A stretch of DNA of 64,000 nucleotides from Octopus vulgaris (Eukaryota). This document shows positions 14,901 to 61,097 of this stretch, one piece after another (position 1 is the first letter of the stretch; each line of letters opens with the position of its first letter). The notes beneath the pieces are model-generated. The model made no database searches and had not been told where the DNA came from. It saw only the letters and a program-made list of their open reading frames with translations. A program made the translations under genes and the position numbers. The stretch lies in contig OX597824.1 in NCBI GenBank assembly GCA_951406725.2, forward strand, positions 74,214,001-74,278,000. Reading direction: 5' to 3'.

Positions 14901-15070
14901 CTTGGGCTGGGGCTGCTATATATATAGATATAAATATTTGTTTTGTAAGATTTTTGATGTGTTGAAACACATTCTGATACTTGGGGATTTTTTTTAGCAT
15001 GGATCCTGCACAAGGATGACATGCAAATTCATGAAGTGTTCCTTATTTTTTGGCACAGAAGTGGTCACTA

Positions 15071-43576: not shown

Positions 43577-44045
43577 ATCTAGCTGATGTAAATGAAAACC
43601 TGCTTCGCATTTAGATCTAAAAACCAGGTGTTCTTAGATCTAAGTGTGTTCTAAAAGGTGTTCTTTAGATCTAAGAACCAGAAGACAATCCTTGTTGAAG
43701 TATATAATATCAATGAATGCCAGTATATGTTTGACAATGTGTGTGTGTGCCCTGATTTTGACATTATGTGATGGTAGCAAATAAGCATTGCTGTCATATA
43801 AGTGATGTTCCTTCCAGTCTTACATGAAAAAACATGTTTAGCTATGAAAAAAATATAATCTTACTTGGAACTGGTTGAGTGTTGGTGACAGGAGAGGCAT
43901 CCAGCAGTAGTACAAAAATCTGCTTCATAATTTCTGTGTGTCCCATGCAAGTATGGAAAAGTGGACATTAAATGATGCTGATTATGTTAAGGAATGCATT
44001 TTCTGATGTCTGATTTAATCTCGATTTTCCATTATTCTCTTACAG

Positions 44046-44178
44046 TTTGGTATCAAGGATAGAGCCTGAAGATATTCCCAATACATTTCTCAATGTTGCC
44101 AGTGCTATTGTCTCTGTAAACCTTACTTGGGATATAGTGGTTCGGTTCTTTTACTTTGCCTACAAAATGGCCATCAAG
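44046..44178 (+). CDS. BAX: BAX-like exon, alpha3-alpha5 with atypical BH1
   Basis: ctcttacag acceptor, aag|gtgagt donor; 133 nt, phase 2-0; LVSRIEPEDIPNTFLNVASAIVSVNLTWDIVVRFFYFAYKMAIK aligns to BAX FFRVAADMFSDGNFNWGRVVALFYFASKLVLK. Confidence 0.93.
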
Positions 44179-44205
44179 GTGAGTTCTAACAACTGCTTTA
44201 TAGTT

Positions 44206-44284
44206 CTATGTTTAAGAGATGAGGAATTATGTACATTATTTACATCCGACAGATATTTGTCCTCATCTTGTTTGTTGTTAACAC
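44206..44284 (-). mobile_element. Retroposed 3' fragment of the hammerhead SINE in a BAX intron
   Basis: Near-identical to 60602-60680; TSD TTTATAGTT at 44197-44205 and 44285-44293. Confidence 0.8.
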
Positions 44285-44553
44285 TTTATAGTTTTTTTTC
44301 TTTTTGCTTTAAACCTTGCTCCATTTGGCAGAGGGTCAGTTATGTTCTGAATTCAAATTGCTTGGAAGTCAACTTTGCCTTTTATCCTTTTGGGATCGAT
44401 AAATTAAGTAGGGGTTGTTGTAGCCAACTAGCCCCATTCTCCCCAAAATTTCAGACTTTGTGCCTATAGTAGAAAGGATTGTTTTTGTTATGTGCTTTTT
44501 CTTTGTTTCCCATGCTGAATGTTAAAACCTTTTTTTCTTTTTATATATTTCAG

Positions 44554-44652
44554 GCATTGGACCGGATTCCTTTAATCCGAGCCATCATCAACTTAGTTAT
44601 TAATTTTATAGTAGACAATCTTGCTGATTGGATTCTATCTCGAGGTGGATGG
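44554..44652 (+). CDS. BAX: BAX-like exon, alpha6 to BH2
   Basis: tttcag acceptor, tgg|gtgagt donor; 99 nt, phase 0-0; ALDRIPLIRAIINLVINFIVDNLADWILSRGGW; intron after GGW is the conserved Bcl-2 family position. Confidence 0.95.
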
Positions 44653-59543: not shown

Positions 59544-60594
59544 TGAGATTTATTACAGAAAAAGCTCATTTGATGGAGACAGTTGTCCTCTCTCATTTTG
59601 TAAGTGTGTGTGTTTTTCTTTCTTTATTTTGGTCTGCAGAAAGGAGCTGTGTCCATAGCTCTCACCAGTTCTCAGGAATAGTGAATTTTCTGTCAGCATT
59701 TTTTCTTGAAATCAACAACAGAAAGGCAGACATGCTGAAGGAACGAATTCCATGCTGCTGGAATTTTGGGAAGAAGTAACTGCATAGTGGATTATGTAGG
59801 GGTCGTAGTAGGTACTGGAAGATAAGTGAAGGAGAGGTAAGTGAGTTGAGTGTGTCTGAATGGAGGTAACAAAAAACCAAGCAGCATTGTAAAGAAGCCA
59901 TTAGGGTAGTGGCCACATCTAGGGGTTAGGGGCTGGAGTGTATTTGTAATTGATTGGTATGATGGATGAAAGACCAAGTTGACCTCAGCAGGAATAGAAT
60001 CCAAAATGTTAAAAGCCACAAGAAATACTGCAAGATATTTTCCATGCTAGCATGGGTTGGACGGGAAGTTGCCCGGATTCTCCAACTTCCCGTTTTTCCC
60101 GTCCAACCCATGCTAGCATGGAAAATGGACGTTAAATGATGATTCTAACAATTTTGCCAGCTCTAGGCACAAGACCAGTAAAGATGAAAAGCAATGTTGA
60201 CCTAGGTGAAATTTGAACTTGTAATATAAAAAGCCGTAATCAAATATTGCAAAGCACTTTATCTGGTGCTCTGATAAGAATTATGATGATGATGGTGGTG
60301 GTGATTTTTAACTGAGGCACAGGTCCACAATATGGGTGAAGGAACAAACAAGAAAAATGCCTCCAATTCTTGACAGCTGCTTTATTTCTTACTGACCACC
60401 ACACCAGAAGAATGAATCCCAAGTCCAGTTTCAGAAGGATTTCATTCAAATCCACTAAATTAAGTGATCTTTTTTGGATGGGGTCAAAGATGCCTGTGGG
60501 ATGTAACAGCAGTACTTTCCTGTATTATGGCTTTGTCAGATGACAAGGGAAGTGTTCAGGATTTTCACAGCTCTTCTGGGTTAAAATAAATACA

Positions 60595-60862
60595 TACAGT
60601 TCTATATTTAAGAGATGAGGAATTATGTACATTATTTACATTTGATGGATATTTGTCCTCATCTTGTTTGTTGTTAACACAACGTTTCAGCTGATATACC
60701 CTCCAGCCTTCATCAGGTGTCTTGGGGAAATTTTGAATCTGGGTTCTCATTCCTAAGGTATTTTTCGATATTATTATTATTATTATTCAGGTCACTCCTT
60801 GGAATAGAACTCGGAATCTTGGGGTTAGTAGCCCGCACTCTTAACCACTATGCCATATGCCC
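60595..60862 (-). mobile_element. tRNA-headed SINE containing a hammerhead ribozyme
   Basis: Head GGGCATATGGCATAGTGGTTAAG...GAGTTCTATTCC (A and B boxes), (AAT)n linker, hammerhead, 3' tail; flanking direct repeat AAAATAAATACA at 60583-60594 and 60909-60920. Confidence 0.8.
60676..60721 (-). ncRNA. Minimal type I hammerhead ribozyme motif inside a SINE
   Basis: Minus strand gacac-CTGATGA-a-ggctg(gagggtatat)cagct-GAAAC-GT-T-gtgtt; stems I and II pair; stem III is the loopless palindrome AACGTT. Confidence 0.75.
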
Positions 60863-61097
60863 ATGGGCATACAACATGAGGAGAAATATCCATCAAATGT
60901 AAATAATGAAAATAAATACAGTTGATAATATGGTGGGCACAAGCATAATTATGTGGTTAAGAAACTGACTTTGCAACCACATGCTTGGGTTCAGTCCCAT
61001 TGTGTGTCACTTTGAGCTGTCTTCTGCTATAGCCCCAGACCAGCCAATGCCTCATGAGTGAATTTGGTAGATGGTAACTGCATTAAAGCCTGTTGTG

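Follow-up and report, generated by a model that had tools for sequence, protein, structure and literature searches.

An intronic copy of a Penelope-like element in Octopus vulgaris begins at or one base past a predicted hammerhead cut site, where copy ends sampled genome-wide form no spike

In the octopus genome, inserted copies of a Penelope-like element (PLE) do not owe their ends to cleavage by its predicted hammerhead ribozyme, except perhaps for a class of well under 1%. This mostly negative result comes from a single insertion in a window of 64,000 nucleotides (Octopus vulgaris contig OX597824.1, positions 74,214,001 to 74,278,000) and from the family of repeats to which it belongs, whose more than 11,000 copies make a genomic test of PLE hammerhead cleavage possible. 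The insertion lies in an intron and begins at the predicted cut or one base past it, and the first-pass annotation had taken it for the self-cleaved 3' product and hence for evidence that the ribozyme is active in vivo. That claim is not supported: there is no spike at the first base past the cut, a T-rich control site behaves equally, and replication gave 0 of 10. With a probability of roughly 0.7, we read the insert as a 5'-truncated one-arm copy of the element's terminal repeat (pLTR), likely made from uncut RNA, whose start at the cut site likely came about by chance or through a short match at the T-rich TT/GTGTT (the slash marks the cut or nick throughout).

Positions are numbered from the predicted cut, +1 being the first base past it (60680 in the longer copy of the window, 44284 in the insert) and -1 the preceding base; 5' of the AAT repeat they follow a reference of our own, which places the first base of the tRNA-like head at -180 (window position 60862). 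The insert at 44206-44284 is identical to 60602-60680 at 74 of 79 bases in an ungapped alignment and is flanked by the 9-bp direct repeat TTTATAGTT at 44197-44205 and 44285-44293. The C at 44196/44284 lengthens this target site duplication (TSD) to 10 bp, so that the insert begins at +1 or +2. The match, its TSD and the start at the cut with one ambiguous terminal base had all been described beforehand and are borne out. The stub spans +1 to +79, 34-nt tail included, and is antisense to the host gene, its TSD starting 18 nt inside the intron; read on the element strand, the left TSD copy is AACTATA and overlaps element positions +80..+86. The earlier observation that both insertion targets of the window resemble the element end AACTGTA likewise stands, at 6/7 and 7/7 bases. 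Since genomic copies elsewhere match the insert at 97%, the stretch 60602-60680 is a relative of it and not its parent. Four DNA runs were compared at this site. Contigs of runs X8 and X9 continue unchanged 23 nt into the insert, and both runs therefore carry it; the contig of run X12 (organism C) covering window positions 43950-44205 reaches one base past the left TSD and breaks off there, a hint that the site is empty in X12. Among the contig rows listed for the four runs, no joint spans an empty site.

The intron had been assigned to BAX. It is intact (44179-44553, GT-AG), and the two flanking exons resemble Bcl-2 proteins in Pfam, with BAX as their top solved-structure match in the PDB (E 0.056). 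The similarity and the intron are thus upheld, but with Pfam matches that stay under the curated cut-off (Table 1) the gene is called BAX-like only.

Table 1. Features of the insertion site and of the longer element copy in the window.
Feature	Position	Strand	Basis or remark
BAX-like exon 5' of the intron	44046..44178	+	Pfam Bcl-2, E 9e-4, under curated cut-off
Left TSD copy of the insert	44196..44205	+	9 bp from 44197; 10 bp including the C at 44196
5'-truncated one-arm Penelope pLTR stub	44206..44284	-	74/79 to 60602-60680; 97% to other genomic copies
Right TSD copy of the insert	44284..44293	+	base 44284 is TSD or element +1
BAX-like exon 3' of the intron	44554..44652	+	Pfam Bcl-2, E 2e-5, under curated cut-off
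TSD of the two-arm insertion, 12 bp	60583..60594 (left), 60909-60920 (right)	+	sequence
Tail-bearing arm of the two-arm Penelope pLTR insertion	60595..60862	-	longer copy in the window
Penelope "tail", 34 nt, +53..+86, on one arm only	60595..60628	-	sequence
Minimal type I hammerhead (predicted)	60676..60721	-	cut predicted between 60681 and 60680
Likely ATG of the Penelope ORF	60748..60750	-	frame crosses hammerhead and tail into the N-terminal domain
tRNA-like head	60801..60862	-	A-box-like 60855-60845, B-box-like 60812-60801
Inverted second arm without tail, +11..+51	60868..60908	+	sequence

What had been called a hammerhead SINE is the end repeat (pLTR) of a protein-coding Penelope-like element, and the module joins the ORF in coding copies. 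In locus L069 the end of the reverse transcriptase (RT) ORF continues directly into the tRNA-like head, the AAT repeat and the hammerhead, while in L246 and L265 one reading frame extends from the pLTR across the tail and on into the N-terminal domain. Among 30 ORF loci retrieved with the L069 RT protein, 17 have a sense-oriented tRNA-like head downstream of the RT ORF, mostly about 1 kb past the start of the query. The ORF matches RVT_1 in Pfam (E 2e-10), and its C-terminal part resembles GIY-YIG clusters (0.96, language-model features); on the decayed copy that gave RVT_1, Pfam reported no GIY-YIG match. Judged by domain order, the element is an autonomous PLE (RT plus GIY-YIG) of Penelope/Poseidon architecture. 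The contiguity of the head with the 3' end of the ORF in protein-coding copies argues against a free-standing, non-autonomous tRNA SINE. Across the 2.8 Gb of genome searched, an exact 19-mer anchor of the element has 11,846 matches. Most insertions are head-to-head arm pairs in which one arm carries the 34-nt tail, and their TSDs measure 8-16 bp, most often 12; we collected 98 distinct two-arm insertions with a TSD of at least 9 bp, and the window copy at 60583-60920 has the two arms and the TSD as well. In one copy (L507, G000:C3:123044172), TTAGGG repeats adjoin the 5' end.

Besides this element, the window holds several dispersed repeat families, each in 5-13 copies, many of which form inverted pairs. 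The 3' half of a U6 snRNA (Rfam) at 14993-15050 is followed immediately by a repeat copy at about 15117, and the two may form a U6-repeat chimera.

On the minus strand, the tail-bearing arm of the longer copy runs from the tRNA-like head through the AAT repeat, the ORF start and the hammerhead to the tail, and a single reading frame from -70 passes through the hammerhead. The predicted ribozyme reads GACAC-CUGAUGA-A-GGCUG..CAGCU-GAAAC-GUU/GUGUU. It has the features of a minimal type I hammerhead, namely the CUGANGA...GAAA core, an unpaired base before helix II, and helices I and II; in comparison with the available text of PMC4209133, it also has the palindromic remnant of helix III and an NUH triplet. 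When forced, stems I and II have a free energy of -9.6 kcal/mol. At 10.1-11.1 the window hammerhead has G-U instead of the G-C found in most of the family, and the Rfam search returned no hammerhead match in the window or in the element copies.

The chief alternative to our reading is that hammerhead cleavage takes place in vivo in a minority of transcripts, helped by dimerisation or a protein, and that the 86-nt 3' product, which retains the RT start sites, is reverse-transcribed up to its end and inserted as a one-arm stub such as the one in the BAX-like intron. We regard this as unlikely, even though that insert speaks for it by beginning exactly at +1/+2 without a TT overlap. By eye, 95 of the first 100 of the 11,846 anchor matches extend across the cut site, and 5 have a 5' junction within -19..+14, one of which is a fold-back at +1. 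Junctions were enriched with exact patterns that exclude the upstream consensus, at an efficiency of about 35% on random flank; these samples are small and favour young copies. From 660 pattern matches, 90 junctions in -19..+14 were called computationally, and the 56 that are not internal deletions include 1 at +1, 4 each at -2, +2, +3 and +4, and 5 at +6. Position-specific patterns were also used, with all matches listed (65, 64, 63 and 21). Raw by-eye counts were 8 at -11, 3 at -10, 17 at -2, 8 at -1, 12 at +1, 8 at +2, 19 at +3 and 8 at +4; by-eye tallies leave out internal deletions, copies of the deletion variants and full-length copies that have diverged, and count segmental duplicates once. 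Corrected for efficiency, +1 has 12 junctions vs a mean of 14 for five neighbours. No spike of 5' junctions at +1 is thus seen in the genome-wide pattern samples, which counts against cleavage. The first-pass annotation had expected a sharp peak of 5' ends at the cut base and had named a uniform spread as the sign that it was wrong; the profile around the cut is flat, which is largely that second outcome. In the contigs of one DNA run, no 5' end on the element falls at the cut among the best 6 loose-end rows, with 190 more behind them.

Junctions to unrelated DNA, counted by eye, give a more structured profile: about 1.5 per position at -19..-3 (100 of 120 listed), about 5 per position at -2..+4 and at +6..+12 (58/58), and about 2 per position at +22..+31 (64/64). 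They are about three times denser at -2..+12 than at -19..-3 or +22..+31, and that the step starts at the cut favours cleavage. However, base composition accounts for the step: in the T-rich control core at -54..-51, a reading of some three quarters of the 263 matches gave about 4 such junctions per position. The by-eye count of these junctions is highest at +1 (8 vs a neighbour mean of 4.6, P 0.095); computational re-calling leaves 5 "flank" junctions there, the others being joined to other element parts. Twelve loci are perfect fold-backs centred on the 8-bp palindrome TGTTAACA at +2..+9, and many inverted junctions fall at +2..+7. Three other fold-backs at +2..+9 keep +1 and not -1, none keeps -1/-2, and two have unrelated changes; those that retain +1 are a weak hint of cleavage. 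Separately, in L017, L411 and L412 the N-terminal ORF sequence from beyond the tail is joined in sense exactly to +1, a joint that could stem from template jumps or circular intermediates. In the article text available from the literature, as distinct from supplements and curated repeat libraries, we came across no genome-wide survey of copy 5' ends around a PLE hammerhead.

We then considered the one-arm stubs that carry a TSD. Among 79 flank-type rows, a TSD score of at least 9 was found in 6 of 27 at -2..+3, discovery copy included; leaving that copy out, 5 of 26 stubs are TSD-flanked there vs 1 of 52 elsewhere in -20..+31 (P 0.014), with a false TSD rate of 0.6% in the scan. A start at exactly +1 fits L141, L421, L422, L423, the weaker L426 and the window copy, and these six TSD-flanked stubs argue for cleavage. 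Against it, the T-rich control site at -57..-43, about 50 nt upstream of the cut, has the same rate (5/26), and its stub L514 shows the same TT overlap. In replication with two other patterns, none of 10 further flank-type junctions at -2..+1 was TSD-flanked; this count leaves out L564 and L573, which are in the register of the deletion variant and of which L573 has a 14-bp TSD, and counting both gives 1/12. Pooled at a looser threshold, the cut site has 6/36 vs 2/52 nearby (P 0.059) and is indistinguishable from the control. Moreover, TT precedes +1 in the TSD of 4 of the 5 non-discovery +1 stubs vs 24 of 98 TSDs ending in TT (P 0.014). This excess upstream of +1 also weighs against cleavage and fits annealing to a cDNA that still carries -2/-1. 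Given the symmetry of the target, the equal T-rich control and the failed replication, the stub excess at the cut is no proof of cleavage, and the first excess (P 0.014) was dropped as such after the control and replication samples.

The symmetry is seen in the 98 two-arm insertions, which have AAAC before the TSD and GTTT after it at a spacing of about 12 bp; T is the last TSD base in 56/98, and the first two bases past the TSD are G in 51/98 and T in 69/98, respectively. Such a target would fit a dimeric endonuclease nicking both strands. With a TSD ending in T and followed by GTT, the second nick reads TT/GT or T/GTT and mimics the hammerhead cut site. The preferred target of the endonuclease thus resembles the cut site, and single cases that start at the cut mislead. 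The target AAAC/about 12 bp/GTTT also resembles the element's own tail end. In these insertions the TSD overlaps the continuation of the element by a mean of 1.55 nt, mostly the dinucleotide TA, vs 0.81 in random DNA (two-sided; the top of 500 shuffles is 1.49) and 0.62 with swapped targets (highest 0.89). The overlap is exactly 2 nt in 32/98 and 6-7 nt in just 2/98, which places both window targets at the extreme. The suggestion that priming uses microhomology therefore holds in a weak form, as a short overlap (1.55 vs 0.62-0.81 nt); part of the likeness between target and tail is due to target preference, with AAAC before and GTTT after the TSD. The anole PLE enzyme is reported, in the available text of PMC11167929, to start at RNA sites without homology to the cut DNA, and the short primed-end overlap is a small addition to that picture.

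Our preferred reading, a truncated copy from uncut RNA, takes family membership, TSD, tail, target motif and the flat junction profile directly from the data and would join them as follows. The GIY-YIG endonuclease would nick an AAAC/TA-like site, and the RT would prime at the tail end, +84..+88, aided by 1-3 nt of pairing. At the BAX-like intron a single arm would have been made, and the second nick would have captured its cDNA; the sequence usual at this nick, a TSD ending in T and then GTT, would resemble element -2..+5. Repair would leave the TSD of 9-10 bp.

Copies that lack the cleavage triplet are common, which is a further point against cleavage. An in-frame 3-nt deletion without the triplet is present in 93 of the first 100 of 772 matches and, by eye, in about 9 of 100 unselected copies, and it is found on several haplotypes. 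Small deletions at the triplet (3 nt, also 2 and 5) are the commonest indels there and occur in 24 of the 107 segments that span the region, a sample with partial enrichment. In a deletion-enriched sample of arm pairs, 30 are intact/intact, 12 mixed and 4 deleted/deleted, near independence. We weighed whether the 3-nt deletion came from template jumps across cleaved RNA and set the idea aside: the deletion falls within a short direct repeat and preserves the reading frame, and lineage variants or slippage explain it equally. In the published record, as far as the available text goes, PLE minimal hammerheads cut poorly in vitro (PMC4209133), again to the detriment of cleavage, and ribozyme mutants of the anole PLE insert normally in vitro, with no RNA-seq reads ending at the cut (PMC11167929). 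The available text of PMC4209133, PMC8557442 and PMC11167929 leaves the role of the hammerhead in Penelope-like elements open, and the main text of PMC13282606 makes no mention of a ribozyme. On the other side, the R2 ribozyme sets the 5' junction and microhomology nevertheless varies it, according to the text available from PMC3774820, so that a blurred signal is what cleavage would be expected to leave.

Preferred starts are detectable in this family, and the tRNA-like head, where 5' ends really pile up, serves as a positive control. Among loci not picked for junctions, 45 of 56 head-bearing arms begin at -188..-171, and over all loci 120 of 192 do so. The head carries motifs that we take to be A-box-like and B-box-like; Rfam has no tRNA match for it, and ARAGORN calls no tRNA on it at default, with only weak overlapping calls at a lowered threshold. 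It adjoins the ORF end in L069, L247, L250 and L252 and is an integral part of the Penelope pLTR. That most short copies start at the head suggests, as the simplest reading, a Pol III transcript from within the Penelope-like element; a rival explanation is that a 12-nt palindrome at the same place sets the preferred start. We found no tRNA-like head inside a pLTR in the available text of the PLE literature including PMC6962438, as distinct from supplements and curated repeat libraries. A head of this kind within the pLTR, as the start point of most short copies, is the more unusual feature of this Penelope-like element. A broader scenario, which we consider quite improbable, would combine both features: the pLTR captured a tRNA-type Pol III promoter, a SINE-like RNA of about 270 nt templates most copies, and the hammerhead cuts few of these RNAs, giving rare one-arm stubs. 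If true, the genome would preserve, in stubs such as the one in the BAX-like intron, traces of in vivo cutting by a PLE ribozyme.

It is very improbable that the start reflects the palindrome at +2..+9 or a pause of the RT at ribozyme stem I, and not cleavage or target: the 12 perfect fold-back loci, the many inverted junctions at +2..+7 and, in the available text of PMC3846280, palindromes at the inverted junctions of rotifer PLEs are in its favour, but the insert in the BAX-like intron has no inverted arm, and the far stronger stem II has few junctions at its base (-10/-11).

The octopus element shares with endonuclease-bearing PLEs, as described in the available text on Poseidon_Ac (PMC11167929), Pen2a_Av (PMC3846280) and in an overview (PMC8557442), the order of an RT followed by a C-terminal GIY-YIG domain. 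With Penelope/Poseidon elements as described there, it also has in common a pLTR that holds the ORF start and the hammerhead, a head-to-head inverted arm, a tail of 30-40 nt on one arm (34 here), TSDs of 8-16 bp, AT-rich targets and microhomology at junctions. Unlike them, its pLTR begins with the tRNA-like head at which most short copies start. In contrast to what is described for the anole enzyme, the octopus target is symmetric, resembles the tail end of the element and shows a short overlap at the primed end. The minimal type I hammerheads that Cervera and de la Pena (2014, PMC4209133, available text) describe in metazoan PLEs have several features in common with the predicted ribozyme: the CUGANGA core, an additional base between 9 and 10.1, G10.1-C11.1 (in most of the octopus family), a 5-bp helix I and the palindromic helix III remnant AACGUU. 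The predicted octopus ribozyme differs in its helix II of 5 bp and in that a variant without the triplet is common. R2 with its HDV-like ribozyme (Eickbush et al. 2013, PMC3774820, available text) is the model behind the cleavage reading, as the cut there sets the inserted 5' end. In R2 the cut defines the ends of full-length copies, whereas here about 95 of 100 copies run past it.

Schistosoma Sm-alpha repeats join a tRNA and a hammerhead and occur in high copy. Animal non-LTR retrozymes, non-autonomous derivatives of PLEs, are likewise short, hammerhead-bearing, pLTR-related repeats of high copy number in the text available from bioRxiv 10.64898/2026.07.22.740005. Unlike the retrozymes and Sm-alpha as so described, the octopus repeats are mostly dispersed two-arm insertions rather than cut-to-cut tandem monomers, and their tRNA-like head is part of a coding element.
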